From a virus: 64,000 nt of DNA. This document shows, in pieces, positions 5,865 to 24,611 of the stretch. The stretch is from positions 114,054-178,053 of the IMG/VR virus record IMGVR_UViG_3300020048_000018; one strand, written 5' to 3'. The notes under the pieces are model-generated. The model was not told where the DNA came from and searched no databases. It saw only the letters and a program-made list of their open reading frames with translations. How positions within the stretch are numbered: the stretch's first letter is position 1; every line of letters begins with the position of its first letter. The translations under genes and the position numbers were made by a program.

Positions 5865-7538
5865 TTAAAGCAATGCTTGCATATTAAACTCGTCCATAAC
5901 AGGGTCATTAGACTCTTGTCTAACATTTTTTGCTTCGTTGGTTACTACGCATTGAGTAGTCAATAAGGTTGATGCAATTGATACAGCATTTGAAAGAGCA
6001 GTCCTTGTTACCAAGATAGGGTCTATTACCCCTGCATCAAAAAGATTTTGAATCTTATCATCCTTGGCATTATAACCATATTCAAATTTTTTCTTTTGAA
6101 CCGATTCTACAATACCATCAATTGACTTAGATGCATTCTGAATAATTCTTTTAAGTGGTGCAAGTATTCCAATTTTAACCAGTTTATATCCTGCAAGAAT
6201 AGAAGACTTGGCTTCATCATTATAGGACTTATCAAGTTTAGGTTCTTTCATTGATTTAGATATATGTGCTAAAGCACATCCTCCACCAACTACTACACCC
6301 TCACTAACTGCCGCCCTGACTGAGTTAACAGCATCCTCATATCGATGCTTAAGTTCTATCATTTCAATTTCAGTTGTTGCACCTACAAGAATAGTAGCAA
6401 TACCACCATTGAGTTTAGCAAGTCTTTCTTTATATGAATCAATTTGTGATTGACTCATTGAATCTTTTTCTGTTTCCAATTCTGCAATAAGAATATTACA
6501 GTAAGCGTCAAGGGCATCATCATTTGTATTAGCTCCAGTTATTATTGTTCTTTGGGGCCACATACGAATTGATTCACAGGTTCCTAAATGTTTTACATCA
6601 AAGTTTTCTGGGTACAATCCGTCTTTGTATAAGGGTGATGCACTTGTAAGAATCGCAATGTCATCGGTGTAGTCCTCAATCTGAGTTATTGACCAACCGG
6701 GTGTTTTTACCATGCACAATTTTACAACACCTTTTTTTTGATTAGCAAGAAGGAATGCTTCAACTTCTTCCTCGAATTCAGGTGCAATAATAACTAGATT
6801 AATTTTCTGTTTAGAACAATAATCTACAACAGAAATAATATCCTTGTAGTCATTAATAGGTTTTAATGAAAGTAAAATTTTAGGATCTTTATATTCACAT
6901 GAGCCATCTTTGAGATTTGCAAAGGCAGAACTGATATACCCTTTGCTCAACTCAAGACCACTTGAAAACTTTACTTGAGTTTTTTCATTTAAGGAAGTTC
7001 CTATTGAAACAATTCCTAAATCTCCAATACCCTCAAAGGCTTCACGAATACTCTTTCCTACATTTGGGTCATTGTTTGCCGAAATCATTGCTACATTATA
7101 AATAGACTCGGCGTCTTTAATAACCCGTTTATTTTTTTCGAGCTTCTCAAGAATTTCTGTAAGTGCTAAGTTCATTCCGATTTTAATAAGGTGAGGGTCG
7201 TATCCACCAACACTTGAAACAAGTCTCATACCTTCTCTTGCAAATTGAGATGCAAGAACTGTAGCTGTAGTTGTACCATCCCCTGCAATATGATTTGTTT
7301 TAATGGCGGCATCTTTTACAACCTGACAACCTAAGTTCATATATTTATCTGAGAAATTAATTTCTCTTGCAACAGATACACCGTCTTTTGTAACAATAGG
7401 ATGAGTACCCTTGTCTAATAAAACATTCCTACCCTTTGGACCAAGCGTAGTTCCTACTGCTTCATCTAAAATATTAATGCCCTTCATCAAGCGTTCCCTA
7501 ACTGAATCTCCAAATAATACTTCTTTTGCTATTCCCAT
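5865..7538 (-). CDS. groEL: GroEL-like chaperonin
   Basis: TLGPKGRNV, TKDGVSVA, GDGTTTATVL, ERLAKLNGG, GVVVGGG, GVIDP. Confidence 0.97.
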   Translation of the reverse strand: MGIAKEVLFGDSVRERLMKGINILDEAVGTTLGPKGRNVLLDKGTHPIVTKDGVSVAREINFSDKYMNLGCQVVKDAAIKTNHIAGDGTTTATVLASQFAREGMRLVSSVGGYDPHLIKIGMNLALTEILEKLEKNKRVIKDAESIYNVAMISANNDPNVGKSIREAFEGIGDLGIVSIGTSLNEKTQVKFSSGLELSKGYISSAFANLKDGSCEYKDPKILLSLKPINDYKDIISVVDYCSKQKINLVIIAPEFEEEVEAFLLANQKKGVVKLCMVKTPGWSITQIEDYTDDIAILTSASPLYKDGLYPENFDVKHLGTCESIRMWPQRTIITGANTNDDALDAYCNILIAELETEKDSMSQSQIDSYKERLAKLNGGIATILVGATTEIEMIELKHRYEDAVNSVRAAVSEGVVVGGGCALAHISKSMKEPKLDKSYNDEAKSSILAGYKLVKIGILAPLKRIIQNASKSIDGIVESVQKKKFEYGYNAKDDKIQNLFDAGVIDPILVTRTALSNAVSIASTLLTTQCVVTNEAKNVRQESNDPVMDEFNMQALL

Positions 7539-7562
7539 TTTAATTTCCTCTACTATGATATT

Positions 7563-8882
7563 TTAGTTGTTGTTTGCTTTTTTCAAGAGTTTCAGGTCTT
7601 CTATCCAAAGGTCTTTTTCAGTTTTCAAAGTAAGAACTTCAAGTTCTTCTTTCGATTTTACAAGGTCTTCCTCAAGCTTTTTATATTTCTCTGTAGTAAA
7701 ACTATCAATCCTCATAGCCAAAAGAAAATCATAGGAGTCATATACCTTTTCATACTTACCTGCTACTAGAAGTTTTTCAATATCAGACTTTGATTTCTTA
7801 TACACTATGAGTTTGTCAGACATTATTTCTTTTAGAAATCTAATCTTGTTTTTTAATTCTATACTCTTCTCAGTAAGATTTTTTATAAGATATTTCTTTC
7901 TTAGATCATAATATTTGAGTCTGATTTTAATAAAGGCTTTCATTAATTCAATCTCATTCTTGAATACTACAATAGTATCCTTTTCAGAAATGCAGGAAAA
8001 GTTTTCGGTTTGCTTATCAACCAACTTCAAAGTCGATAGGATTTCTTCATCAGGAAGAGAACAAAACTCTCGGGTACATTTAATATCAAATCGGTATATT
8101 CCATGTTCTGACAAATCTTTATAAGATTTTATGAGGTCTTTTTCTACCAGATTTTCCAGTTCTTTAATATAAGCATCACGCTCATAAGAAAAAGGTAAAT
8201 CAGTTATAGTAAGCTTTGCATCACCCTTCTCGAATTTACCCACAATCTCAACTCTGTTATCACCCAAGATTATTACATTTCCATTAAAAGAATTTAAGGA
8301 GGGTGTAATATTTTTTACCTTCTTATCATTGAGAAGCTTTTCAAGAGCATCAATAACAAATTCAAGTTTTCTAGGTAAAATCTTCTGAGCATACCCAGAG
8401 CCAATTCCCGAGGAACCATTTACTAAAATAAGAGGTACTATAGGTACATAGAAAAAGGGTTCAATTGAATCACCCTCGAAAAACCGATAATTTATTATAT
8501 TCCTATCATCAGGATTAAGAATAAGGTCAAACCACTTCGATTTCTTGGTAAAAATATATCTTGAAGCGGAGGCATTATGTGCTAGTGAGTTCCCAAAATT
8601 TCCCTCAGGGTCTAATAAATTACAATTATTACAAAAGTCTTGTGCCAGACCAACAGTAGCACCTTCAAGTGATACGGCTCCATGTAAATAAGAAGTCAAC
8701 TCAGCCGCTGATGAAGCTAAATTGGCTACTTTCATATTTTGAGTAATGTTTCGCTTGTCAACAGTAAAAATTAATTTTCTTGTTGAGGGTTTTAATCCAT
8801 CTACAAAATTAGCAATACCTCGGAACGAAGAATAAAGACTAAAATCCTTAAACTGATTGAGAAAGAAATGTGATATTTTCAT
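7563..8882 (-). CDS. DNA topoisomerase II medium subunit (T4 gp52 / GyrA-like)
   Basis: DGLKPSTRK, YLHGAVSL, GNFG, ASASRYIF (catalytic RY), NGSSGIGSGY. Confidence 0.95.
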   Translation of the reverse strand: MKISHFFLNQFKDFSLYSSFRGIANFVDGLKPSTRKLIFTVDKRNITQNMKVANLASSAAELTSYLHGAVSLEGATVGLAQDFCNNCNLLDPEGNFGNSLAHNASASRYIFTKKSKWFDLILNPDDRNIINYRFFEGDSIEPFFYVPIVPLILVNGSSGIGSGYAQKILPRKLEFVIDALEKLLNDKKVKNITPSLNSFNGNVIILGDNRVEIVGKFEKGDAKLTITDLPFSYERDAYIKELENLVEKDLIKSYKDLSEHGIYRFDIKCTREFCSLPDEEILSTLKLVDKQTENFSCISEKDTIVVFKNEIELMKAFIKIRLKYYDLRKKYLIKNLTEKSIELKNKIRFLKEIMSDKLIVYKKSKSDIEKLLVAGKYEKVYDSYDFLLAMRIDSFTTEKYKKLEEDLVKSKEELEVLTLKTEKDLWIEDLKLLKKANNN

Positions 8883-8889
8883 ATAGTAT

Positions 8890-8898
8890 AGATTAACA
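8890..8898 (-). promoter_or_regulatory. TGTTAATCT extended -10-like promoter (leaderless candidate)
   Basis: 7 nt from ATG of gp52-like gene, no SD. Confidence 0.55.
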
Positions 8899-9474
8899 TA
8901 AAGGGCTTAATTTATTCTTCTGAAGGTGGTCACGACATTTCTTGCATAAAACCTTGTACACTGTATCACCCACTTCAATATCTGAGGTCTTAGTTCCTGT
9001 ATGAAAGGAATAATTACCTAATTGAGAACCACATTCCATACAAACCCCATTGAGTTTAATTATTGTCTCACAATATGGAAGGAGCTTTGCCACTTCTTCA
9101 AATACAATGTTATCTGAGGAAGCAAGAAGTCCTGCATAATAAACGTCCATCATATCTCCAAAGAGATCCGCAATTTTATATACGTCTTTAATCATGAAAC
9201 ATTCATCAATGAAGACTGAATCAATTTCATCTCTCACTAAAATATTTAGACCTTCTTCATCTCGTAAGTCCTCAAATTTATCAATTTTAATAACCTTGAT
9301 ATCGTAATTGTTGTATCCGATGTTTACTGCATCTGAATGTGAAAAATATGACCTATCATCTTTCACTGGTCTAATTAAAATAATTTTCTTTTTCGCAAAT
9401 AGATTCCTTTCTATATGCTTAAACAGCTCAGAACTCTTAAATGAAAACATGGGGCCTGTAATAAATGTAACCAT
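8893..9474 (-). CDS. tdk: thymidine kinase (TK1 type), atypical P-loop
   Basis: GPMFSFKSSEL, FIDEC, C-terminal CxxC..CxxC Zn site. Confidence 0.8.
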   Translation of the reverse strand: MVTFITGPMFSFKSSELFKHIERNLFAKKKIILIRPVKDDRSYFSHSDAVNIGYNNYDIKVIKIDKFEDLRDEEGLNILVRDEIDSVFIDECFMIKDVYKIADLFGDMMDVYYAGLLASSDNIVFEEVAKLLPYCETIIKLNGVCMECGSQLGNYSFHTGTKTSDIEVGDTVYKVLCKKCRDHLQKNKLSPLC

Positions 9475-9500
9475 AAACTCTCCTTTTCCTAATCAAAATT

Positions 9501-9509
9501 ATATTAACA
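9501..9509 (-). promoter_or_regulatory. TGTTAATAT promoter
   Basis: Upstream of TK SD AAGGAG. Confidence 0.55.
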
Positions 9510-9786
9510 TAAAATTGAAAACCTGTTAAAAACACAAGAATTTCCAAAGTGTGGAACATATGGGTAAGAAGATGATGTACCATGACTACCAAATATGTGA
9601 CGAGGTTACTTAAAGAGGCTATAAATAGGATTTTAGAGCTATAGAGCTTGTCTTACTGAATATAGAAAATAGCTTAACAAATCTGGAGGCGAAAAGTTTA
9701 AAATTTTTTTGAGTCCTGAAATTTTTATTTTTACTTTTTTTTAAAACTTTACAAACCTATTTTATTTGTCATTTTTTAGTGTCTAT

Positions 9787-9850
9787 ACTAATTAAAAATA
9801 AATGTTAATCTCTAGTAAAGGGAAACCTATTAAAGGCGAACAACTAATTA
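9787..9850 (+). promoter_or_regulatory. two ACTAATTA late-type motifs plus TGTTAATCT upstream of hsp20
   Basis: ACTAATTA 9787-9794 and 9843-9850; TGTTAATCT 9803-9811. Confidence 0.4.
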
Positions 9851-9944
9851 ATATAACCCACTACATAGTGGTAAACGACATATATGCTACGGTAAATCAA
9901 TATTTGATTGTTAGAACAAAATCTACTATTAAATATTTGAGATA

Positions 9945-9965
9945 GTTCTCTTCGTATGAAGGAAC
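9945..9965 (+). ncRNA. C(GUAU)G leader hairpin, copy 1
   Basis: GTTC-T-CTTC GTAT GAAG-GAAC. Confidence 0.5.
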
Positions 9966-9990
9966 ACATTTATTTTCTTGGAGTCTCATT

Positions 9991-10542
9991 ATGAAAAATG
10001 GACACAGCTACGATTCACCCTTTTCTTTCTTTGATGATGTAATGGATATTTTCAATTCATCAGTCGCAAGAACCCAACACACAGGTAACAATTCGTTCCC
10101 TCAACAAAGTCCAGATTGGGTTATCAAACAAGTATTTCCTATTGGAAATATTTTTGATACTGTAAGCAAGCTACCAAATTGTTTGGTTTCTTCTGCTTAC
10201 CCTCCCTCAAATGTTTTTATTGATAAGGATAAAAATTACCGAATTCAATGTGCTTGTGCAGGATATGATGAAAATTCGATTGGTCTTGATTTTGATAAAG
10301 ACCATTTGGTAATTACATTATTAGGGGATTCACCTTTTGAGGCTTCTGAAATAATGCTTCAATCTGGGGTAAAAAGTAAAACTAAGGATTACAAAGTAAA
10401 TTTCTTTATTGATACGAGAAATTTTGATGTAGAAAAACTAGAGTCTTCAATGGCTAATGGGCTTCTTGACATTAAGATTCCTGCGGTACCTACCAAGAAA
10501 TTCACCGTTGGTGTAGGAAAACCTCTCTCAAAAGCTGAGTAA
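9991..10542 (+). CDS. small heat-shock protein Hsp20
   Basis: YPPSNV, ACAGY, LESSMANGLLDIKIP alpha-crystallin motifs. Confidence 0.85.
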   Translation: MKNGHSYDSPFSFFDDVMDIFNSSVARTQHTGNNSFPQQSPDWVIKQVFPIGNIFDTVSKLPNCLVSSAYPPSNVFIDKDKNYRIQCACAGYDENSIGLDFDKDHLVITLLGDSPFEASEIMLQSGVKSKTKDYKVNFFIDTRNFDVEKLESSMANGLLDIKIPAVPTKKFTVGVGKPLSKAE

Positions 10543-10550
10543 TCAGGAAA

Positions 10551-10574
10551 GGGAACTACAGAAATGTGGTTCCC
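10551..10574 (+). terminator. GAAA-tetraloop hairpin after hsp20
   Basis: GGGAACTACA-GAAA-TGTGGTTCCC; weak U tract. Confidence 0.55.
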
Positions 10575-10646
10575 TATCATTTTAAAAGGTAACAACTAAT
10601 TACCTGAGCTTACCACAAAAAGCGAAAGCAGAGTAAAATCTGTAAT

Positions 10647-10669
10647 AGATTTCTCGTATGAGTAAATCT
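10647..10669 (+). ncRNA. C(GUAU)G leader hairpin, copy 2
   Basis: AGATTT-CTC GTAT GAG-T-AAATCT, downstream of ACTAATTA 10595-10602. Confidence 0.5.
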
Positions 10670-10716
10670 TAATGTGAGCAGAGATTAAGACCTAATCTCA
10701 AAAAGGAAAAAGAAAA

Positions 10717-11877
10717 ATGGTAGATTTTTCAAAATATGTAAAGATGTACGAGAGCTATAAAGATCGTAACGACTTAGGGACTGGCATTACTCGTTCTGAG
10801 ATTAAAGAACTTCGTGAGTCATATGCTACTGAGTCTAAGAAAGAACGTATCATGGAATCAAGACGTGGAACCGGTTATGCCAAGAGACTTGAGGAAAATG
10901 CTAAGGTAGATTCTGAACGCAAATCCCTTAAAGAAAAAGCTGATCTCAAAGATTCACGTATGGAAAGAATTAATGCTCTCCGTGAAGCTCGTGAGAACTC
11001 GGTTGTTGCTCCAGTAAAAGGTGTAGATAAAGTAGTTGCTACTCTTGATGAAAAGAAAGCCCAAGAAGCTCGTTCTGCAAGAATTCAATCAATCCGTGAA
11101 GCTCGTGTTGCAAAACCTGCAACCTCTTCTGTTGAAAAGAAACCTGTATCCAATGTAAATGAGAAAATCAATGAAGCTCGTTCTGCATACTTCAAAGCAA
11201 GAAAAGCTCTTCGTGAAGGTGACATGGGTATGGCAGGTGAACAAGCTGGAATCGCAACACAAGCTGTAGACGCTGTGAATGTAAACCAGACTGTAGTAAG
11301 CCCAGAAGTACTTGCAATTATCGAAGACCTTAAGAACAAAGTTGATAATCTTGCTACCACTGTAGGTATCGTACCTGCTGATACTGGCATGACCGCAGAA
11401 GCTGACCCGAACGCTGGAGTTCCTGCACAAGTAGGACAACCTCTTGACCAAGTTCAGGTTATGGAATCCGCTCAGTTGACTGCTGTAAAAGCAAGAATTG
11501 CTGAACGTAAAGCTATGATGGCTAAGACTTCTGCCGAAGTAGAAGCTCTTAATGAATCAGAAGCTGGACAAGCACAGATACTTGCAGTAATGAAAGCAAC
11601 AACCCCAAAGGATATGAGCTTGGCAACTGTTGACAAGAAAGAATCCGTTCTTCCTAAGATGCCCTCAGTAGCAGAAATCGTAAAAGGTACTGCAAAAGGT
11701 GTTGAAAGATGGCCCAACAAAGCAATTAAGAAAGACCCTTCTGCCGCTTTACTCGGAAAAGGTATCACGATTAATGAAGCTGAAAAACCATTAGACGAAC
11801 AAATGGTTGACAAAGTTCTGAATGAAGAAAAACTTAATTTCAGAGATATTTATAGAAATGGTGCTCTTACCAAATAA
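10717..11877 (+). CDS. probable prohead scaffold/core protein
   Basis: E/K/A/R-rich helical; more than 10 [LIVM]-x-E motifs (LRES, LREA, IREA, INEA, LNES, LNEE); MCP-like codon bias; strong terminator. Confidence 0.5.
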   Translation: MVDFSKYVKMYESYKDRNDLGTGITRSEIKELRESYATESKKERIMESRRGTGYAKRLEENAKVDSERKSLKEKADLKDSRMERINALREARENSVVAPVKGVDKVVATLDEKKAQEARSARIQSIREARVAKPATSSVEKKPVSNVNEKINEARSAYFKARKALREGDMGMAGEQAGIATQAVDAVNVNQTVVSPEVLAIIEDLKNKVDNLATTVGIVPADTGMTAEADPNAGVPAQVGQPLDQVQVMESAQLTAVKARIAERKAMMAKTSAEVEALNESEAGQAQILAVMKATTPKDMSLATVDKKESVLPKMPSVAEIVKGTAKGVERWPNKAIKKDPSAALLGKGITINEAEKPLDEQMVDKVLNEEKLNFRDIYRNGALTK

Positions 11878-11893
11878 GATGATGTAAAATTAT

Positions 11894-11924
11894 AGGGGTC
11901 TCTATTTTTGGAGACCCCTTTTTT
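11894..11924 (+). terminator. intrinsic terminator
   Basis: AGGGGTCTC/GAGACCCCT plus T tract. Confidence 0.85.
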
Positions 11925-11925
11925 A

Positions 11926-11934
11926 TGTTAATAT
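11926..11934 (+). promoter_or_regulatory. TGTTAATAT promoter (leaderless candidate)
   Basis: 7 nt before ATG 11942; no SD. Confidence 0.55.
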
Positions 11935-11941
11935 AATTGAT

Positions 11942-12691
11942 ATGAATATTAAAAATAAGTTTGGTTTTACTTCTTTCTCTATGGTAGATTCACCTAATGG
12001 TACAATTTCTTCTGTTATATATACACTAGGTTGTACAATGAGATGCAATTATTGTTACAATAATACTTTGGTTTTGCCAGAGCTTTTTTCCTCAAATGAC
12101 CCTCTATATTCAAAAGAAGAAATAAAGAGTTTAATACTTTCTAAAAGAACCTTAAACACTAAAAATAATACTTTTTTTAATAAATCAGATTATATTGTCC
12201 TTTCTGGTGGAGAACCTTTAATGCATTATGATGATGTAGTAGACTTCGCCATTTATGCAAAGTCTTTGGGATTTAAGGTTAAATTAAATACTAATTCATC
12301 TATTGATGTAACAAGACTTTTAGAAACAAAGTCGGTTGACTATGTTTCAATAGATTTTAAATTCCCCTTTCAGGATTACAATAATGAAAGTGTCCAACAA
12401 AATTTTAAGTATATACAACAGTCAAAAACTAAAAAACTTATTAATGAATTCGAAATTCATACTGTTATATTAAAAGGTTTTATTGATAAAGAAACCATTA
12501 TTAAAATGGCTGAGGAACTCAATACCTTAAGTATTTCTGCTTCTTGGTATCTGGTAGGTTACAAACATATGGACACGGTTCTTGATAAAACACTTTCCCC
12601 CAATAACCGATTTTTTGAGCCTGAAGCAAAAGAACTTTACCAAACTGCTCTTATGCATTATAATGGAAAAGTAATTCTTTCGGGATACTAA
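11942..12691 (+). CDS. radical SAM activase, anaerobic RNR-activating (NrdG-like)
   Basis: GCTMRCNYCYN, VLSGGEPL, KLNTN, YVSIDFK. Confidence 0.75.
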   Translation: MNIKNKFGFTSFSMVDSPNGTISSVIYTLGCTMRCNYCYNNTLVLPELFSSNDPLYSKEEIKSLILSKRTLNTKNNTFFNKSDYIVLSGGEPLMHYDDVVDFAIYAKSLGFKVKLNTNSSIDVTRLLETKSVDYVSIDFKFPFQDYNNESVQQNFKYIQQSKTKKLINEFEIHTVILKGFIDKETIIKMAEELNTLSISASWYLVGYKHMDTVLDKTLSPNNRFFEPEAKELYQTALMHYNGKVILSGY

Positions 12692-12710
12692 AACCCTTTG
12701 GAGGTTTATA

Positions 12711-13250
12711 ATGAGTAGATCACTTAAGAAAGTTGCTTCGGGCAATCGTCATGCAAGTGATAAATATACAAAACAAAAAGCCTCCCGAAAAGTAAGACGA
12801 AAAAATAATATCTGTTTAAATTCATTTGAATCCAGTAACGATGAAGACTTAATAGCCTTACGGGACTCTAAGGAACTTTGTTCTGTAGCATGGAGTGGAG
12901 AAAAAGAATCTTGCCATGGGGTATATACCGAGAAAGAATCTAGGAAATATATCTTAAAAGAAATTGAATATGCTAAGAGAGAAATCTCTATGGGCAGATG
13001 GGAAAAGATTCGTAAATATGTCCTTAATGTTGACGCAGAGGATTATTGGGATGGTCACTATTTACATTCTTGGAGACAATTACCTAAGAGACCTTGGGAC
13101 ACTATTAAAAAAAATATTTTCTATAATTGGAACAACAAACTCTTAGTAGTCTTAAAGATTAAAGTTCCAAGTGACCTCTGGAAAATAACTGATAAAGACA
13201 TAGAAAAAGCTGTTAAATTAACTCACAAATTTGAGTATTTAATGAAATAG
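12711..13250 (+). CDS. basic hypothetical protein
   Basis: SD GGAGG; K/R-rich N-terminus. Confidence 0.6.
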   Translation: MSRSLKKVASGNRHASDKYTKQKASRKVRRKNNICLNSFESSNDEDLIALRDSKELCSVAWSGEKESCHGVYTEKESRKYILKEIEYAKREISMGRWEKIRKYVLNVDAEDYWDGHYLHSWRQLPKRPWDTIKKNIFYNWNNKLLVVLKIKVPSDLWKITDKDIEKAVKLTHKFEYLMK

Positions 13251-13263
13251 TTTCAAGAGTTTA

Positions 13264-13272
13264 TGTTAATAT
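13264..13272 (+). promoter_or_regulatory. TGTTAATAT promoter
   Basis: Intergenic, upstream of dUTPase. Confidence 0.5.
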
Positions 13273-13302
13273 ATCCTTATCACGTTTAAGGATGTATTAA
13301 GT

Positions 13303-13926
13303 ATGAGTTCACTTGAGTTATTGAAAATTAGAAATGTAAAAAGTCCAAATAGGGGAACCTCTCATTCAGCAGGAATAGATTTTTATATGCCCGAGTTTGA
13401 TGAGGATTTCCTTATGGAAATGTTTATGAAAAATAAAAAAGTTTTTTATTTTATGGCATTAAACTCTTTATCAATCAAAGATTTTGAGACTTTTGTAGAA
13501 AGTGTTAGTTTGGATATAACTAAAGATGTTTTGATTGGAATAAAACTATTATGCAAACAAGATAATACTGAGTTTTATTTTGAGTTACCTGCTCTCAAGG
13601 ATTTCTTAATTCCTTCTGGAATTAAAACTAAGTTTCTCAATGGTGTCTTTATTGCCTTTAATAAAGGTGGAGTTGCCACAAAACAGAAGCTTACCGTTGG
13701 AGCCTGTGTTGATGATGAAGATTTTATGGGAGAACTCTTTATTCATGTCGTGAATAGCTCTGATGAACCTCAGAGAATTACCCTTGGAAATAAACTTGTA
13801 CAGTTCTTGTATATGCCAATAAACTATGATATTCCTGTAATCAAAGAAAATATTACCTCAGAGGAATTTTATGTAAAAGTAACAGACCGTGGAGAAGGTT
13901 GCTTAGGTTCCACCAGTATTAAATAG
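13303..13926 (+). CDS. dut: trimeric dUTPase with insertion
   Basis: SAGIDFY, IPSGIK, VDDEDFMGE, LVQFL, RGEGCLGST. Confidence 0.85.
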   Translation: MSSLELLKIRNVKSPNRGTSHSAGIDFYMPEFDEDFLMEMFMKNKKVFYFMALNSLSIKDFETFVESVSLDITKDVLIGIKLLCKQDNTEFYFELPALKDFLIPSGIKTKFLNGVFIAFNKGGVATKQKLTVGACVDDEDFMGELFIHVVNSSDEPQRITLGNKLVQFLYMPINYDIPVIKENITSEEFYVKVTDRGEGCLGSTSIK

Positions 13927-13933
13927 GTCTAAA

Positions 13934-13966
13934 ATTAAAGTCTGAGATTATTCCTCAGACTTTAAT
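13934..13966 (+). terminator. 13-bp hairpin terminator
   Basis: ATTAAAGTCTGAG/CTCAGACTTTAAT. Confidence 0.7.
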
Positions 13967-13971
13967 ATTTA

Positions 13972-14007
13972 AAAAGTTTTGAACTTTTCCAGAAATTTCT
14001 ATATATT
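13972..14007 (+). promoter_or_regulatory. sigma70-type early promoter with palindromic -35
   Basis: TTGAAC(13979)-N17-TATATT(14002); AAAAGTT-TTG-AACTTTT. Confidence 0.8.
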
Positions 14008-14081
14008 ATACAAGAAGATAATTTCGGATAATATCCTTTCCGTTAATAACTAAAGTCTTCTAAATTAAAGGATTTACTTTC

Positions 14082-14804
14082 ATGAATTTTACAAAAGTAC
14101 TGCTTTTAGCAGTAGGTTTATTTTTATTTTGTTCTACAATAACCTTAAATCTTATTATGTTTTCCAAAACAATTTCACCTATCAAACTAATAAGTGATTT
14201 AGGAGAACCTCAAAAAGCTTCCATGGAGGTATCCCCTTTTATTGGTCTAATTCCTGAGGTTGATGAGGTATATTCACCTTCCTTTGATGACATATACTTG
14301 TATATAAACTCAATTAGTAAAAAAAATCCTTCTAAGAATCAGCTCTCAAGAAAACAAATTTCGGATATAATACACTCTGTTGAGAAATATTGTGTTAAGT
14401 ATGGAATTAATAAACTAACTATTTTTTCAATGATTAAAGTAGAATCAAATTATATCCTCACTATCCCTTCTTGGAAGGGTTCTGAATATGGTAGAGGATT
14501 ACTTCAAGTAAGTAAAATAGCATTATTAGATTTTAATAACTGGACAGGTAATGAATACACCTCAGAAGATTTATATACTATAGAAAAAAATATTGAAGTA
14601 GGAATTTGGGCTTTTAATCAAAATTATCACTATGGTGTTGAAAATGGTTTTGAGGAAGGGGCTATAGTTGCCTATAATGTCGGGGTAGGTGATTATAAGA
14701 GACATAAAAAAGATTTATTATCAAATCAAATGTTTAAGGGTTTAACTTATGAATATTCAAGTAAAGTTCAGACTCAATATCAAATATTAATTTCATCCAA
14801 CTAA
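14082..14804 (+). CDS. membrane-anchored lytic transglycosylase (SLT domain)
   Basis: N-terminal TM; MIKVESNY catalytic Glu, GRGLLQV, NIEVG, AYNVG. Confidence 0.85.
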   Translation: MNFTKVLLLAVGLFLFCSTITLNLIMFSKTISPIKLISDLGEPQKASMEVSPFIGLIPEVDEVYSPSFDDIYLYINSISKKNPSKNQLSRKQISDIIHSVEKYCVKYGINKLTIFSMIKVESNYILTIPSWKGSEYGRGLLQVSKIALLDFNNWTGNEYTSEDLYTIEKNIEVGIWAFNQNYHYGVENGFEEGAIVAYNVGVGDYKRHKKDLLSNQMFKGLTYEYSSKVQTQYQILISSN

Positions 14805-14814
14805 GGGGTTACAA

Positions 14815-15135
14815 ATGGAAAACTTCACGAATCTTTGGTCTTATCAAAATGAACAGATAATAAAATTTCAGGGTTCAATAATTTCTCTCTCAAACTTTTC
14901 AGCTATACGTCCCATAATAATAAAAAATATGGGGTATGAGGTTCCTGCAATTAAGTTTTTTGGTAAGAAAGGTATAGAGTCTCAAGTATTTAGCTATGTT
15001 GACTTCCCTGATTTTACGGGATATTCCAAGGAAGCTTTGGACAAGTCGGTGGAAAAACTGATATCAGAAGCAAATACTCAATGTGATTCAGACATCGAAT
15101 GGCTTTGGGATAATTGCTTTAAGGGGGCTAAATGA
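14815..15135 (+). CDS. hypothetical protein
   Basis: SD AAGGGG; overlaps next gene by ATGA. Confidence 0.6.
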   Translation: MENFTNLWSYQNEQIIKFQGSIISLSNFSAIRPIIIKNMGYEVPAIKFFGKKGIESQVFSYVDFPDFTGYSKEALDKSVEKLISEANTQCDSDIEWLWDNCFKGAK

Positions 15136-16325
15136 ACTCAAAAGTAACACAAAAAGACTTAGAGGCTATCTTAGCAGGTCAATCACCTTTCTTGAAAAAT
15201 AAACCTCCTATTCCTCTTTCAGATGAAGAACTTCTGGCATTGGTAGATACAGATGAAAGTAGGGAGAAGACAAGGAATGCTAAAATTATAACCGAAGATT
15301 TTGTTCCTCCCCCACACAAGAGTACTACAGAGGTTCTCTCACAGGCTGAAGTTGATCAGCTTCTTGATGCCATCTCCTGTAGGGATGATGAATCAGATAA
15401 CCTCAGAAGTGAAAAAGAAAATAAGAAACTTCGTGTTAAAATTGTAGACTTTGGTAATTACTTGAGATACACTCAAAAAAATATGAGAAACTTATCCTCC
15501 CTTCATGACGATCTTGTTAGTCATGAAATGTATGCTTCCTTAAAAGAACTTTATGGTTTTGATAATAATTCTCATATGCACCTTGTCAGTGTTGATCAGA
15601 TGAGATTTTCAAACTTCCTTACCAGTCTTCCTTCCCCTTTCTTCATGGGAGTTGTTAAGTTTAATAAGTTTTCAAACCCTCTTATTATTGAAGCTGACTC
15701 AAATATAATCCTTCCCTTAATGAAAAAAGAAATCGTTAGTGTGATGTATCCTACTCTTTTTGAGAAAGATGAACAGAACTTTTTCTCAAAGGGGATTTTG
15801 TTAAGAGTAATAGACTCTCTTATTTCTCAAAATAATAAAGTGTTTAAGTCCCCACCTAAGAGTGTGGAGATTATTGATAATTTTTCCAGTTTTAATACAG
15901 ACCTTTTTAAGAAAACAGGGGTTTTACTTACCATTGAACTAGAAAGCCCTACTGACAAGGTAAGCGGTATGATAAATATCTGGTACTTTGAGGAATTTGT
16001 AAATGAGTTTATTAAAGCTTATGAGTCAAAAGAAATAAAAACTATTGGAGATACTGAAATGGAAATAACGTATAATAAACCTTTTGATGAGAAAGGGATT
16101 AAACTTGAAGTTCTTGCAGAACTTGGTAGATCCAAGCTAACTTTGGATGAACTTAGGGCTGTCGGAGAAGGGTCTATAATTAAACTAAATACTGTCATGG
16201 GAGAAGTAATAAAACTTACAATTGATGGAAAGCTCTTCGCTAAAGGTGAAGTTGTTGCAATAGGTGAAAATGAAAACTTTGGTATCAGAGTAATTGAATG
16301 TATTACTAACGGTGAAACTAACTAA
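15132..16325 (+). CDS. FliM-FliN-like flagellar motor switch chimera
   Basis: TEVLSQAEVDQLLDAIS; FliM-middle-like KIVDF..MRNLSSLHD..HLVSVDQMRFSNFLTSLPSP..IIEAD; FliN-like ELGRSKL..GEGSIIKL..FAKGEVVAIGENENFGIRV. Confidence 0.8.
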   Translation: MNSKVTQKDLEAILAGQSPFLKNKPPIPLSDEELLALVDTDESREKTRNAKIITEDFVPPPHKSTTEVLSQAEVDQLLDAISCRDDESDNLRSEKENKKLRVKIVDFGNYLRYTQKNMRNLSSLHDDLVSHEMYASLKELYGFDNNSHMHLVSVDQMRFSNFLTSLPSPFFMGVVKFNKFSNPLIIEADSNIILPLMKKEIVSVMYPTLFEKDEQNFFSKGILLRVIDSLISQNNKVFKSPPKSVEIIDNFSSFNTDLFKKTGVLLTIELESPTDKVSGMINIWYFEEFVNEFIKAYESKEIKTIGDTEMEITYNKPFDEKGIKLEVLAELGRSKLTLDELRAVGEGSIIKLNTVMGEVIKLTIDGKLFAKGEVVAIGENENFGIRVIECITNGETN

Positions 16326-16349: not shown

Positions 16350-16769
16350 ATGGGAAAGAATTTAGATATTGAAAAAGATTTTGGTATTGATATAGATGGT
16401 GTATATGATTTTTTTGATGACTTAATTGAAATAGAAATTGATTATTCAGGTAAACTTCCTTCCTTAAGCGACCTTCTTACAGCAGGTAAGAGAAATTGGA
16501 AGGATATACCCGTTGAAGCTTTTGAGCATTATGCTAAAACTTCACTTAAAGTTATGTCTGAAAAGCCCTCTACAAAACTTACTGAGTCAATATCTCCCTT
16601 AAAGAAAAAGACCTTTGATGAAAGCTCTATTAGAAGTGACGCAGAACAAATTATAAAATTAAGTGAAGCTTCCCTAAAAATCAGACCTAGTGCAAGTATT
16701 GCATTAAGGTCTGAATCCGTTTATTATTGTAAAATTAATGGTGTTAAAACTGCCATTATTAAAGATTAA
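16350..16769 (+). CDS. hypothetical, possible internal head protein
   Basis: KLTES motif; late motif upstream. Confidence 0.5.
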   Translation: MGKNLDIEKDFGIDIDGVYDFFDDLIEIEIDYSGKLPSLSDLLTAGKRNWKDIPVEAFEHYAKTSLKVMSEKPSTKLTESISPLKKKTFDESSIRSDAEQIIKLSEASLKIRPSASIALRSESVYYCKINGVKTAIIKD

Positions 16770-16791
16770 ATCTCTAAAGAAGGACATAAAA

Positions 16792-17565
16792 ATGAAGGTA
16801 CAATTACAAGAAGGAAAGTTGGTTAGATGCAGTAAGGGTCATAAATACCTTACGGAAAAAGGTGATTTCGTAGAGGTTAAATCTATCGAGAATAAAAACT
16901 CTAAGCTTAAAGAAAGCTATGATGACTATATCAGTGATAAAGTGTTACCTATGATAAAGGGTATCATGGAAGAGTTTAAAGATGGAATAATGTCAAAGTA
17001 TGAGTGCTATAATTATGATGGTGAACAAGTTGAAACCACTGATGGCAGGTCATATGATGGTTTCATGAGTTCTACAGAAGGAACTGTAACATTCTGTGGA
17101 TTTACTCTCCTTGACTATCTTGAAGGTTCTGGATCTTTCCCTTCTAACGAAAAAATTAATAAAGTTATTCAAGAGAAACTTGAATACTTACATAAATCTG
17201 CAAAAGAGGATTTTATCAGTGAGAATAAAGAAGAAATAGAATCTTTAGGTCTTGAGGATTCCCAAGTAAATTATCGTGACCTTGAAGAATTAGGTCATAG
17301 AGAGCTGGCTGAAAATCTTGATGAATATGAGAGAGGTTATATCAGTGAACAACTTTCTTTTGATGTTCATGTTTATTTTAGACAAGACCGACATGATGAA
17401 AACAGCTATAATTTTTACACCTTCTCCGAATTAATTTTTGGTGATTATGGTAGATATGGTAGTGGAACACAGGCATTTGAGGGTGAGTTCGACTTTAAGA
17501 AAGGTGAAGATATTTCTACTAAAGCAAGAGAACTAATCGAACAAGCTTTTAGTAGTTTGGAATAA
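16792..17565 (+). CDS. acidic protein with N-terminal intein-block-B-like segment
   Basis: SD AAGGA; KLVRCSKGHKYLTEKGDFVEVKSI then KLKES and acidic body. Confidence 0.55.
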   Translation: MKVQLQEGKLVRCSKGHKYLTEKGDFVEVKSIENKNSKLKESYDDYISDKVLPMIKGIMEEFKDGIMSKYECYNYDGEQVETTDGRSYDGFMSSTEGTVTFCGFTLLDYLEGSGSFPSNEKINKVIQEKLEYLHKSAKEDFISENKEEIESLGLEDSQVNYRDLEELGHRELAENLDEYERGYISEQLSFDVHVYFRQDRHDENSYNFYTFSELIFGDYGRYGSGTQAFEGEFDFKKGEDISTKARELIEQAFSSLE

Positions 17566-17577
17566 GGGGATATTAGC

Positions 17578-18528
17578 ATGAAGTTTATAAAGAAAGCAGG
17601 AAAGCTCAATGAAGCTTTTGAGGATGACCAATCAATTGAAGATGCATATAAGGATGAGTTTGAGGAAGGTGATGGCACCAATGTAGAGGAATCACATTGG
17701 GATGATGATGACCAACATATAGAAGACCATGATGATGATGATGATGATGATGAAAAGTCAACCAAGATTAAAGCCTTAATGAAGTTTCTTGATATCTCAG
17801 GAGAAGAATATGATTCTGTAGAACAATCTTCCTACAATGATAACCTTTTCACCTATGGTAGAACTGAGTTTCTTGTATGCACTGACTCTGAGGCAGATGA
17901 TGAGTTTCGTGAAAACCAAGAGTCTCTTTGGGATGATATGGGAATAGACTCCTATAGTGAATATATGCAGAATTGGATTTTAGATTTTGCAGTAGATGAA
18001 GAATCTTTCTGGAGTGATCATAGTTCAGATAATGAAGAAGCTATAAGGGAAAGTCCAGATAGCTATTCTCAATATTTTGATATTGAAAAAATGAAAGAAG
18101 ACATTATTCTTGATTTGGATGACAAAGGCTCTGACTCTAAGTATAAGGGGTCTGCTTACCTTTCAACCGACCGAGATGATTTTGATGATGAAGAGTCTTT
18201 CAAAAGTGCTATTGGTGAAGAAGTTGATGGTTTGGATGATGATGATATTCTTTCAATAATTAAAGAGGATGATGACATTGATAATTATGCCTCTGAAGCT
18301 AATGAAAAGTATATGCGTGATCAGGGAACCCCTGCTCAGTATCTTAGGAGTTTAGGTTATGATGGTAAACAACTTGGTTCACAACTAAGTCCTTATCTTA
18401 AAATGGAAGAAATCTTCGAAGAAGTAAAATCTGCTGACGGAAGAGGACACGCACTTGCAGGCTATGATGGTCATGAAAATGAAGTATCTTTTGAGGATGA
18501 AACCTACTATATTTACAGAATAAACTAA
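17578..18528 (+). CDS. highly acidic protein, possible internal head protein
   Basis: KLNE near N-terminus; D/E very abundant, with Asp run. Confidence 0.6.
   Translation: MKFIKKAGKLNEAFEDDQSIEDAYKDEFEEGDGTNVEESHWDDDDQHIEDHDDDDDDDEKSTKIKALMKFLDISGEEYDSVEQSSYNDNLFTYGRTEFLVCTDSEADDEFRENQESLWDDMGIDSYSEYMQNWILDFAVDEESFWSDHSSDNEEAIRESPDSYSQYFDIEKMKEDIILDLDDKGSDSKYKGSAYLSTDRDDFDDEESFKSAIGEEVDGLDDDDILSIIKEDDDIDNYASEANEKYMRDQGTPAQYLRSLGYDGKQLGSQLSPYLKMEEIFEEVKSADGRGHALAGYDGHENEVSFEDETYYIYRIN
17731..17751 (+). repeat. (GAT)7 poly-Asp microsatellite
   Basis: Seven GAT units, in frame. Confidence 0.8.
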
Positions 18529-18533
18529 TAAAA

Positions 18534-18560
18534 AGGTGATTAATTTCAAGATAATCACCT
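18534..18560 (+). terminator. hairpin terminator
   Basis: AGGTGATTA/TAATCACCT. Confidence 0.6.
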
Positions 18561-18596
18561 AAAAGTTTTGAACTTTTTAGATAACTCCTATATATT
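18561..18596 (+). promoter_or_regulatory. sigma70-type early promoter with palindromic -35
   Basis: TTGAAC(18568)-N17-TATATT(18591). Confidence 0.8.
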
Positions 18597-18641: not shown

Positions 18642-19424
18642 ATGAAAAACAACTATAGCGAGGGTGTTTCTAACCGATTAAGGGAGAATAGAGATACTGC
18701 AAGGTTATATGCGCTTCTTACTGGATGGGATTATTCTCATATTTACTCTATGGGGATTATAACCTCTGACAATCCTCGGGGAGAAAAGACTTCAAGTGCA
18801 GAAAACCAGAAAAAATGGTCAGAGCTTAAGGTCTATCTTTCAAGGTCAAACTTTGTATATCTTCAAGTAAAAGGGAAATATGGTAACATGGAGAATAGTG
18901 TTATTATTCAGAATGTTACCCCTCAGTTTATGAGACAATTGAGTATTAAGTACAATCAAGCGGCTTTTATTTATGGTGAAGTATATGAACATAAAGAAGA
19001 GCGAGGTATGAAGTTTGAGTATTTCGTTCAGGAAACTGAGGAAAAGTCTCTGTTTAATCCAAACTATGGAAGGAAGGAACTGGTACAAACCCCGAATGGT
19101 GTTTACCGTTTAGGTTCTACTCGATTCACCTATCTTAAATTTGATAATCCCGATGATTATTATACGAGATTTAAAGGTTTTACCTTTCAGATACCTTTTT
19201 TCGATGATGATTATGACCCAAATAAATTAGGTGATGAAAAAGGTTTCACCCTAAAGTCTAAAGCTTTGGAATCTATTGATAAGGAAGAACTTTTTAGTAG
19301 GATTAAAGAGCAAAAAAGAAGTCATAATAAAACTGAAAGGTCAGTATGGGAAAACCGTGGAATGATAAAATTAATGCTAAATGGAGAATTCCAAGGCATG
19401 AAATATGCTAGAGTTTGTGAATAA
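18642..19424 (+). CDS. DUF3293-like conserved phage protein
   Basis: GIITSDNPRG..ENQ..G.YG..ENSVII..KYNQAAFIYG. Confidence 0.5.
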   Translation: MKNNYSEGVSNRLRENRDTARLYALLTGWDYSHIYSMGIITSDNPRGEKTSSAENQKKWSELKVYLSRSNFVYLQVKGKYGNMENSVIIQNVTPQFMRQLSIKYNQAAFIYGEVYEHKEERGMKFEYFVQETEEKSLFNPNYGRKELVQTPNGVYRLGSTRFTYLKFDNPDDYYTRFKGFTFQIPFFDDDYDPNKLGDEKGFTLKSKALESIDKEELFSRIKEQKRSHNKTERSVWENRGMIKLMLNGEFQGMKYARVCE

Positions 19425-19440
19425 GGAAAAGGAAGGAAAA

Positions 19441-20193
19441 ATGGAAAAATTAAATGAAAGCAGGGAAAATGATCTATTCTTCGAGTTTTTAAACTTCGAT
19501 GAAAGGGATTATTATCATATGGGAGACTCCTATGGAGAAGGTAGAAGTCTTGATACTTTTTTGGAAGATGTAAAAGATTTTTCTTGTGATCTTTACATAG
19601 TAGGTTTTGACAGTGGAAGTTATGATTTTATTCTTGCAACCGAAAGTAATTCTGAAAGAAACCCTTCGTATACCGAGAGTAAGGTTCTTGAAGATTTTTC
19701 AGAAATGTTAAGCGAATCTGAAAGATATGGTTATCAGAATCACAATGAAGAAGATGGAGAGGAATATGAAGGTGTTTCCCTTGATGTAATTACCAAATTG
19801 GACATGGGACAGTTTGTTGAAATTACTTTTGGGGAGATTGACAACCGAACATTTGAAACCGTAAAAAAGGACGTTTGGAATCTTGCAAGCCTTGAAAACG
19901 CTCTTGAGGATTCTGGGTATTACCGAGAACATAATTTCAAGACAAGCACCAAGACTTTTGGGGTAATTGAATTTATTCAGTGGTGTGAAAAGCTTGATAA
20001 TAAGTTTACTGAGAAAAGTACTATTACTCATAATGTACTTGATGATTGCCTAGAGTTTACCTTATCGGATGATTACGAAACTAAGTTTTATTCTATCGGC
20101 GCACCAGCAGGACAGTATCTTAAGCAGAAAATGTTCGAGAGGATTTTCAACTTTATTACCAAAGAAATAGAGTATTCAAGAAACAATAACTAA
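19441..20193 (+). CDS. acidic hypothetical protein
   Basis: SD AAGGA; MEKLNES start. Confidence 0.55.
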   Translation: MEKLNESRENDLFFEFLNFDERDYYHMGDSYGEGRSLDTFLEDVKDFSCDLYIVGFDSGSYDFILATESNSERNPSYTESKVLEDFSEMLSESERYGYQNHNEEDGEEYEGVSLDVITKLDMGQFVEITFGEIDNRTFETVKKDVWNLASLENALEDSGYYREHNFKTSTKTFGVIEFIQWCEKLDNKFTEKSTITHNVLDDCLEFTLSDDYETKFYSIGAPAGQYLKQKMFERIFNFITKEIEYSRNNN

Positions 20194-24434: not shown

Positions 24435-24611
24435 ATGATGAAAATGGTTGACCTTGTTAAAGGTACAAAAGTAGTAGATATTTTCTATCGAGAAAATGGA
24501 ATAGGTGAAATTACCAGTATTAAGAGAACTGTTCTTAGAGTTAAATTTGATAATAAAACTGTAGCATATGATATTAATAAAGCTCTAAAAGATTTAGAGG
24601 TTTCAGTATGA
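24435..24611 (+). CDS. 58-aa SH3-like protein (not in ORF track)
   Basis: SD GGAGG; MMKMVDLVKGTKVVDIFYRENGIGEITSIKRTVLRVKFDNK; ATGA overlap with next gene. Confidence 0.6.
   Translation: MMKMVDLVKGTKVVDIFYRENGIGEITSIKRTVLRVKFDNKTVAYDINKALKDLEVSV

Follow-up and report, generated by a model that had tools for sequence, protein, structure and literature searches.

A phage-encoded FliM-FliN hybrid flagellar switch protein that has lost the FliG-binding loop

Within a window of 64,000 nucleotides (the whole stretch of DNA analysed here, corresponding to bases 114054-178053 of the linear 178-kb IMG/VR virus record IMGVR_UViG_3300020048_000018, 69% complete according to CheckV), we characterised an open reading frame (ORF) whose 397-amino-acid (aa) product joins the N-terminal and middle parts of the flagellar motor switch protein FliM to a C-terminal domain of FliN type. 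The ORF is preceded by a strong Shine-Dalgarno sequence (AAGGGGG), and its ATG overlaps the stop codon of a 106-aa ORF as ATGA. Its features, in window coordinates, are the following:

15132-16325, plus strand: FliM(N+M)-FliN(C) hybrid switch protein, 397 aa (Pfam, NCBIfam, custom hidden Markov models (HMMs), Foldseek)
15144-15173, plus strand: degenerate CheY-binding-like motif 1, VTQKDLEAIL, residues 5-14 (score 19; model helix at residues 7-14)
15216-15245, plus strand: degenerate CheY-binding-like motif 2, LSDEELLALV, residues 29-38 (model helix at residues 31-38)
15336-15365, plus strand: canonical FliM N-terminal motif binding phosphorylated CheY (CheY-P), LSQAEVDQLL, residues 69-78 (TIGR01397, motif scoring)
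15447-15980, plus strand: FliM middle domain with CheC-like fold, residues 106-283 (Pfam, Foldseek template modelling (TM) scores 0.65-0.77, HMMs)
15735-15746, plus strand: site of the GGxG FliG-binding loop, reading VSVM, residues 202-205 (alignment to cellular FliMs)
16095-16310, plus strand: FliN/FliY-type SpoA domain, residues 322-393 (Pfam, PDB matches, phmmer, HMMs)

A first-pass annotation of this DNA, made from its letters alone, had proposed a FliM-FliN chimera and called for family profiles and structure predictions, which agree with that proposal. Pfam FliM matched residues 106-283 (E 7.7e-11, 42.7 bits, gathering cut-off 27) and Pfam FliMN_C residues 322-391 (E 1.4e-14, 54.2 bits, gathering cut-off 23.8), while the NCBIfam FliM equivalog TIGR01397 aligned its positions 1-301 with residues 67-371 and scored 82.5 bits, under its cut-off of 219.6. 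Unlike a canonical fliM, the gene does not lie in a flagellar operon. An AlphaFold model built on 14 relatives was of low confidence (mean predicted local distance difference test (pLDDT) 57.6); its top Foldseek matches were Salmonella FliM, from cryo-electron microscopy of the cytoplasmic ring (C-ring), and crystal structures of the FliM middle domain (TM 0.65-0.77), followed by FliY and FliN of Thermotoga maritima, with PDB entry 4hyn among the matches. Judged by these similarities, the ORF is a genuine FliM(N+M)/FliN(C) chimera, and neither an intact host FliM nor a member of the FliM equivalog family.

The two ends of the protein point to different parents. FliM ordinarily ends in a FliN-like fold, and the C-terminus of the hybrid is more specifically FliN-type than this usual ending. 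We compared residues 323-393 with C-domain HMMs built from 79 cellular FliMs and from the FliN/FliY genes lying 3' of them: the FliN/FliY model gave 54.5 bits and the FliM model 17.0 bits, and phmmer with the same domain matched 74 FliN/FliY proteins and none of the 79 FliMs, in line with the FliN-type ending claimed at first sight. The best PDB matches were the FliN proteins of T. maritima and Salmonella, and the GEVV core is conserved; the FliN model TIGR02480 gave 53 bits, under its cut-off of 84. Conversely, residues 1-310, comprising the CheY-binding motifs and the middle domain, form the FliM-type part, scoring 81 bits on a FliM HMM vs 7.7 bits on an HMM of the neighbouring FliY proteins. 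The possibility that the hybrid is simply a FliY was rejected on this FliM-type middle domain.

What the middle domain lacks is the loop through which FliM contacts FliG. The GGxG column of the FliM profile reads G-G-x-G in all 79 cellular FliMs fetched (consensus IIDRLFGGTGEG), and the hybrid has VSVM at this column, inside LMKKEIVSVMYPTL (local stretch LMKKEIVSVMYP), in agreement with the annotated loss of the loop from a domain otherwise recognisable as FliM. Coevolved interface pairs connect the GGXG motif of the FliM middle domain with the EHPQ motif of the FliG middle domain (review PMC7355467). The CheC-type phosphatase motif (D/S-x3-E-x2-N-x22-P) was not found in the hybrid.

The N-terminus was annotated as carrying three helices resembling the CheY-P-binding peptide of FliM, of which one proved canonical. 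With the consensus of the 79 cellular FliMs as scoring reference and sequence shuffles as null, LSQAEVDQLL (from residue 69) reached a score matched in 0 of 3000 shuffles, and 30.3 bits on a position-specific scoring matrix that 0 of 5000 shuffles attained. Instead of standing at the very N-terminus, it lies at residues 69-78 behind a 66-residue N-terminal extension. The other two, VTQKDLEAIL (residue 5) and LSDEELLALV (residue 29), rank second and third among all sites of the protein and are degenerate, their scores being reached in 14 and 16 of 3000 shuffles respectively, and the pair within the first 66 residues in 2 of 3000. The AlphaFold model places a helix on each of the three motifs, at low pLDDT. 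The hybrid thus has one solid CheY-P-binding-type motif and two degenerate ones of modest significance. A second motif site within the first 100 residues occurred in none of the 79 cellular FliMs, while doubled N-terminal motifs are clear in eight relatives of the hybrid (P0002, P0005, P0006, P0126, P0141, P0142, P0151 and P0156), so that multiplication of the CheY peptide is a trait of the family. Invariant columns of the alignment of relatives (A1) include E67, L69, S70, E73, L77, L78 and G372-V375; the N-terminal motif and the SpoA domain are the best-conserved portions of the protein, the middle domain having a far lower per-residue score.

The hybrid gene lies in the following stretch of the window:

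13939-13961, plus strand: hairpin AGTCTGAG / CTCAGACT following the dUTPase gene; probably terminates the preceding unit (sequence reading)
13972-14010, plus strand: conserved sigma70-like promoter AAAGTTTTGAACTTTT-N10-CTATATATTATA, with -35 TTGAAC and -10 TATATT
14082-14804, plus strand: SLT lytic transglycosylase with an N-terminal hydrophobic anchor (Pfam SLT, motifs)
14815-15135, plus strand: 106-aa ORF, translationally coupled to the hybrid through the ATGA overlap (no family match)
16350-18528, plus strand: three downstream ORFs of 139, 275 and 316 aa before the next terminator (no recognised family)
18535-18596, plus strand: hairpin GGTGATTA / TAATCACC followed by the next promoter copy, closing the unit

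The annotated sigma70-type promoter is present, with its hexamers TTGAAC-17-TATATT at 13979-14007, and belongs to an element of 40 nt that is conserved nearly base for base. Four copies occur in the window (at 13972, 18561-18568, 28735 and 58522), where 0.04 would be expected, and the whole genome has about 27; one of these stands directly 5' of a homologue of rIIA. These copies usually stand immediately 3' of a hairpin, as do both copies flanking the hybrid, and the promoter and flanking hairpins delimit the transglycosylase, the 106-aa ORF, the hybrid and the three further ORFs as a single promoter-to-terminator unit. In phage T4, rIIA is an early gene. Since the same promoter class serves the rIIA homologue, early expression of the unit is plausible, by analogy carried over from T4.

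The identity of the transglycosylase was confirmed by Pfam SLT (PF01464; E 3e-7, 30.4 bits, cut-off 21.3), by the N-terminal hydrophobic segment expected of a membrane-anchored protein, and by the catalytic Glu-Ser (as VES), GLLQ and AYNVG motifs read in its translation. The 106-, 139-, 275- and 316-aa ORFs matched nothing in Pfam, PHROG or NCBIfam. A sequence at 16321, ACTAATTA, may serve as a separate start signal for the ORFs at 16350-18528; as an internal late promoter its count is at chance level (8 vs 7.5 expected). The last gene of the unit (17578-18528) encodes an extremely acidic 316-aa protein with D/E runs and no family.

Beyond the unit, the record is that of a phage. Its genome has a G+C content of about 32% and small, densely packed genes predominantly on one strand, and it encodes both T4-type topoisomerase II subunits, GroEL, HNH and homing endonucleases, a dUTPase and radical-SAM proteins; outside the window it also has the rIIA homologue (E 3e-91), a DnaB-like helicase and several phage-only families (PHROG). 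A profile search of the genome for Terminase_6C returned no match; despite this blank, the rIIA homologue, the helicase, topoisomerase II, GroEL and the PHROG-only families identify the record beyond doubt as a phage; the hybrid is carried by a jumbo phage. At 19525-19609 a tRNA-Pro(UGG) is predicted, within a mechanically called ORF (19405-20193) that may therefore be spurious. Profile searches for FliG_C, FliG_M, CheX, MotA and a second FliMN_C domain were negative across the 178-kb record (69% complete). Its sole receiver (REC) domain belongs to a 396-aa response regulator outside the window (C1:66362-67552 of record G000, equal to L006:1468-2658), in which an intact REC is followed by PAS-like regions (REC-PAS-PAS).

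This setting bears on whether the switch gene is viral at all. Contamination by bacterial DNA, or misassembly of a host flagellar operon into a viral contig, is a genuine worry for other records such as MaAM05/PhiMa05, and nothing here speaks in its favour. The switch gene is flanked by phage backbone genes, the identical phage promoter stands on either side of its unit, no other flagellar gene occurs within 178 kb, and the architecture of the hybrid is non-canonical, where contamination would have brought an intact host FliM inside a fli operon. We consider the probability of such an artefact vanishingly small.

Comparison with related contigs separates the switch gene from its neighbour. The first-pass annotation had grouped transglycosylase and switch gene in one module, perhaps remodelling peptidoglycan around the motor. 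However, homologues of the transglycosylase (55-63% identity) likewise follow a dUTPase in contigs L112 and L113, which have in common with the window the succession GroEL, topoisomerase II, TK, Hsp20, a 386-aa protein, radical SAM, dUTPase and SLT (48-69% protein identity). All that L112 retains after the transglycosylase is a stretch of 43 residues with 47% identity to hybrid residues 347-387, in the SpoA domain (E 2e-7); the genes beyond it are unrelated, and homology returns at window position 24608. At seven loci of other phages, FliM-like genes have different neighbours, none with an adjoining transglycosylase. The proposed module is thus unsupported, as is motor-associated peptidoglycan remodelling: the transglycosylase is a backbone gene in a conserved dUTPase-SLT arrangement, not tied to the switch gene, and looks like an ordinary membrane-anchored phage lysin. 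The switch gene, in turn, is by this comparison an accessory gene in a variable region; the SpoA remnant at the same place in L112 implies that it was present before the lineages split and has since been deleted in one of them. The remnant itself (L112:10801-10944, directly 3' of the transglycosylase) can be called as an ORF of 34-42 aa, which may or may not be expressed. L112 is syntenic with window positions 5865-14804 at 48-69% protein identity, yet has a G+C content of about 57% vs 32%, a very wide difference in composition for phages that are related.

The remnant also raises the prospect that the hybrid is a decaying passenger, a captured host switch gene shedding parts (the FliM C-domain, the GGxG loop) on its way to deletion and with no present function. 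The loss of two canonical features, the long branch of the protein in our tree, the L112 remnant and the gene split into 225 and 155 aa in a complete phage (L010, below) would all fit such a fate. An open frame of 397 codons at 32% G+C would however arise with a chance of about 1e-14, as estimated from base composition; the strong Shine-Dalgarno sequence, the translational coupling, the key motifs retained at both ends, the motif copies gained and the many short forms without the GG, which make up a diverse clade, also argue against decay, which we regard as very unlikely.

The hybrid is not alone. A word-indexed search returned 13 full-length relatives at 23-33% identity, and an exhaustive search 88 representatives at E <= 1e-10, the majority of which combine the N-terminal and middle parts of FliM with a FliN-type SpoA domain; the search for homologues in other phages was thus fruitful, with relatives in phage-like contigs, including L010, a complete 305.8-kb phage with terminal repeats. 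Long relatives (about 410-470 aa) are FliM-FliN fusions in which a weak FliM C-domain is retained and a FliN-type domain added, whereas short ones (about 310-400 aa, including the window hybrid, P0007 and P0013) have lost the FliM C-domain. The strict GGxG is missing from most relatives with a FliN-type end. Every readable context lies outside a flagellar operon, and most are phage-like (among them L096, L003, L008 and L101), with Hsp20, Cpn60 and dUTPase in L094 and DnaJ in L095. Around the FliM-like genes of L002, L003, L008, L009 and L010, the switch gene is the only one in common at E < 1e-3. In L010 (positions 9998-11136), the FliM-like gene lies 1.5 kb after GroEL and is split into overlapping ORFs of 225 and 155 aa, which could reflect a frameshift, a sequencing error or a programmed shift. 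In another IMG/VR contig (L009:9998-12577) the gene order is M-N-G, with near-canonical fliM and fliN and a FliG of 404 aa that has a hydrophobic segment at its N-terminus; methyltransferase-like ORFs come next.

Several relatives come with FliG-type partners. In L002 and in the 173.8-kb ENA contig of P0002, a full FliG stands directly 5' of a FliM-FliN fusion, the P0002 contig also encoding a CheY-like receiver (122 aa), CheX, a 637-aa HATPase protein, a primase, an Mre11-like protein and RecA. The hybrids of L094, L095 and L096 are long forms that keep the GG, and each has directly 3' an ORF of 132-155 aa, conserved among the three, which carries an EHPQ-like motif of the FliG middle domain (NELPQTIAFILSF and variants), with a sub-threshold Pfam FliG_M match (E 0.0024) and an hhalign match to phage FliGs (76%, E 2e-5). 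These small ORFs look like mini-FliG partners, and we list them as candidates:

L094:9132-9530: candidate mini-FliG ORF, 3' of a GG-bearing fusion
L095:5776-6243: candidate mini-FliG ORF, 3' of a GG-bearing fusion
L096:11156-11593: candidate mini-FliG ORF, 3' of a GG-bearing fusion

In the window phage the GG loop is missing, the ORF downstream of the hybrid bears no relation to the mini-FliGs, and no FliG domain occurs in the record. This 139-aa ORF resembled neither the ORFs 3' of FliM-like genes in other phages nor the one at the corresponding place in L112. Across relatives, loop and FliG-type partner thus seem to be retained or lost as a pair, a co-variation that fits a FliG-independent role of the stripped form.

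As to its origin, the best cellular matches of the hybrid were overwhelmingly from Spirochaetota (Treponema, Spirochaetaceae) at 22-27% identity, with search patterns that favour spirochaetes. In a FastTree phylogeny of the N-terminal and middle region, midpoint-rooted and probably subject to long-branch effects, the long GG-bearing hybrids adjoin spirochaete FliMs, and the window hybrid falls in a long-branched clade without the GG. The spirochaete resemblance noted at first reading therefore recurs in the best matches, and the bias of the search and the rooting of the tree leave the donor lineage as something we infer: the hybrid may descend from a spirochaete-type switch gene, and the host may be spirochaete-like.

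We favour, tentatively and with a probability of about 45%, the interpretation that the hybrid is an accessory phage gene whose product would serve as a sink for CheY-P at or near the motor. Probably expressed early in infection, it would bind host CheY-P through its N-terminal peptides, and its SpoA domain would pair with itself or with host FliN/FliY, the FliM C-domain or FliH at the C-ring base. Having lost the GGxG loop, the hybrid would be unable to pass the signal on to FliG, and rotation bias would be uncoupled from chemotaxis. As both ends are the best-conserved parts of the protein while the coupling loop and the phosphatase site are gone, a CheY-P sink is the simplest reading; CheY-P binding, ring docking and an effect on swimming are what we infer from the motifs and domains.

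The closest rival is a dominant-negative poison of ring or export, in which the hybrid would enter the C-ring base or sequester FliH-FliI, destabilising the ring or blocking type III export so that motility or assembly stops. The FliN-type SpoA domain with its conserved GEVV core, the lost loop and the early-class promoter are all compatible with it, as are studies of rotor-component exchange in working motors and of FliN turnover cited by a review (PMC7355467). It leaves unexplained why the CheY-binding peptide has been perfectly kept and multiplied, and we consider it unlikely, noting that it overlaps with the CheY-P sink and that the sequence cannot tell the two apart.

FliM-SpoA proteins also occur away from flagella. 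One (P0167, L100:4246-5559) is fused to a helix-turn-helix (HTH) domain in a bacterial-looking island, where it adjoins a PemK toxin pair and cas1-cas2; another (P0094, L097:5489-6511), also in a bacterial-looking island, lies amid an LRR-AAA protein, a TPR protein and a type I restriction-modification (R-M) system. A scaffold repurposed for a role unrelated to motility may thus be envisaged, an adaptor or regulator in a phage process or in counter-defence, whose LSQxEID peptide would dock another receiver protein, possibly the REC-PAS-PAS protein of the phage itself. Such a role would suit the non-flagellar settings of these two proteins, the intact receiver of the phage regulator and the high divergence of the middle domain. 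Against it, the N-terminal motif is of the same type as in motor FliMs, and in sister phages the hybrids are accompanied by FliG, a CheY-like protein and CheX, pointing to the motor and chemotaxis; we hold it to be quite unlikely.

Several observations weigh against the CheY-P sink that we prefer. The hybrid is strongly diverged, as its TIGR01397 score (82.5 vs 219.6 bits) and its long tree branch indicate, and confidence in its structure model is low (mean pLDDT 57.6). Motifs 1 and 2 rise just modestly above chance. The gene is dispensable, the closest relative phage (L112) having kept merely a remnant. Bacteria use the same fold outside flagella (P0167, P0094), and a Spirochaetota host is suggested by FliM similarity through search patterns biased towards spirochaetes.

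A more specific version of the same idea would make the hybrid a multivalent CheY-P trap in the FliN/FliY position at the base of the C-ring, locking the motors of spirochaete-like hosts in one rotational state early in infection, the stripped form being the end of a series that starts from phages carrying a whole switch (FliG, FliM-FliN and CheY/CheX). We find this version doubtful as it stands; if true, it would amount to viral control of host swimming behaviour. Flagella serve phages as receptors. A phage equipped with a remodelled motor-switch component of its own would take over its host in another way, by targeting behaviour (swimming and chemotaxis) instead of metabolism. In addition, the family constitutes a natural domain-deletion series on FliM, with or without GGxG, with or without the FliM C-domain and with one to three CheY peptides, and such variants could inform C-ring assembly and the reading of CheY-P. 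For annotation, FliM calls in viral contigs are neither necessarily contamination nor canonical FliM.

Our literature search found no study of a phage-encoded FliM-like or flagellar motor switch protein, and among 50,697 GenBank phage records the sole match was a FliN-type domain, 40% identical, in MaAM05; the absence of a characterised phage counterpart, as first surmised, thus holds for both searches. The MotA-MotB-FliL-FliM-FliY cluster of Microcystis PhiMa05/MaAM05 (MW495066; PMC13623518) resembles our case in that switch genes lie in a record deposited as a jumbo phage, but its genes form a canonical bacterial operon (pomA-motB-fliM) surrounded by housekeeping genes such as fabI, engB and acyl-CoA dehydrogenase, where the hybrid is a remodelled single gene. 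The phage status of PhiMa05, a relative of MaAM05, is disputed.

Compared with spirochaete FliM (TIGR01397/PF02154; Treponema loci L018, L043 and L083, with fliM followed by fliY/fliN), the hybrid has the same (T)EVLSQxEIDQLL peptide, a middle domain with the VASVDQ...P.P core and a C-terminal SpoA fold. It differs in lacking GGxG, in the FliN-type domain that replaces the FliM-type C-domain, in its 66-residue extension with two degenerate motifs, in a score far under the equivalog cut-off, and in being phage-borne, away from any flagellar operon. FliY of Thermotoga maritima and Bacillus subtilis (PDB 4HYN; Sircar et al. 2013) comprises a CheY-binding N-terminal peptide, a CheC-fold middle domain that does not bind FliG and a FliN-like C-domain (PMC7355467). 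The hybrid follows this general plan, but its middle domain is FliM-type (81 vs 7.7 bits) and has no CheC phosphatase motif, so that it could bind CheY-P and not dephosphorylate it. The phage FliM-FliN fusions (P0002/L002, L094-L096) are members of the same gene family with a FliN-type terminal SpoA domain and an often doubled N-terminal motif, in jumbo-phage contexts that likewise contain GroEL, Hsp20 and dUTPase; these fusions keep the FliM C-domain and (G)GxG and have a FliG-type partner, whereas the hybrid is stripped and partnerless. Set against these systems, the hybrid is a diverged form of a known protein family in an unexpected carrier.

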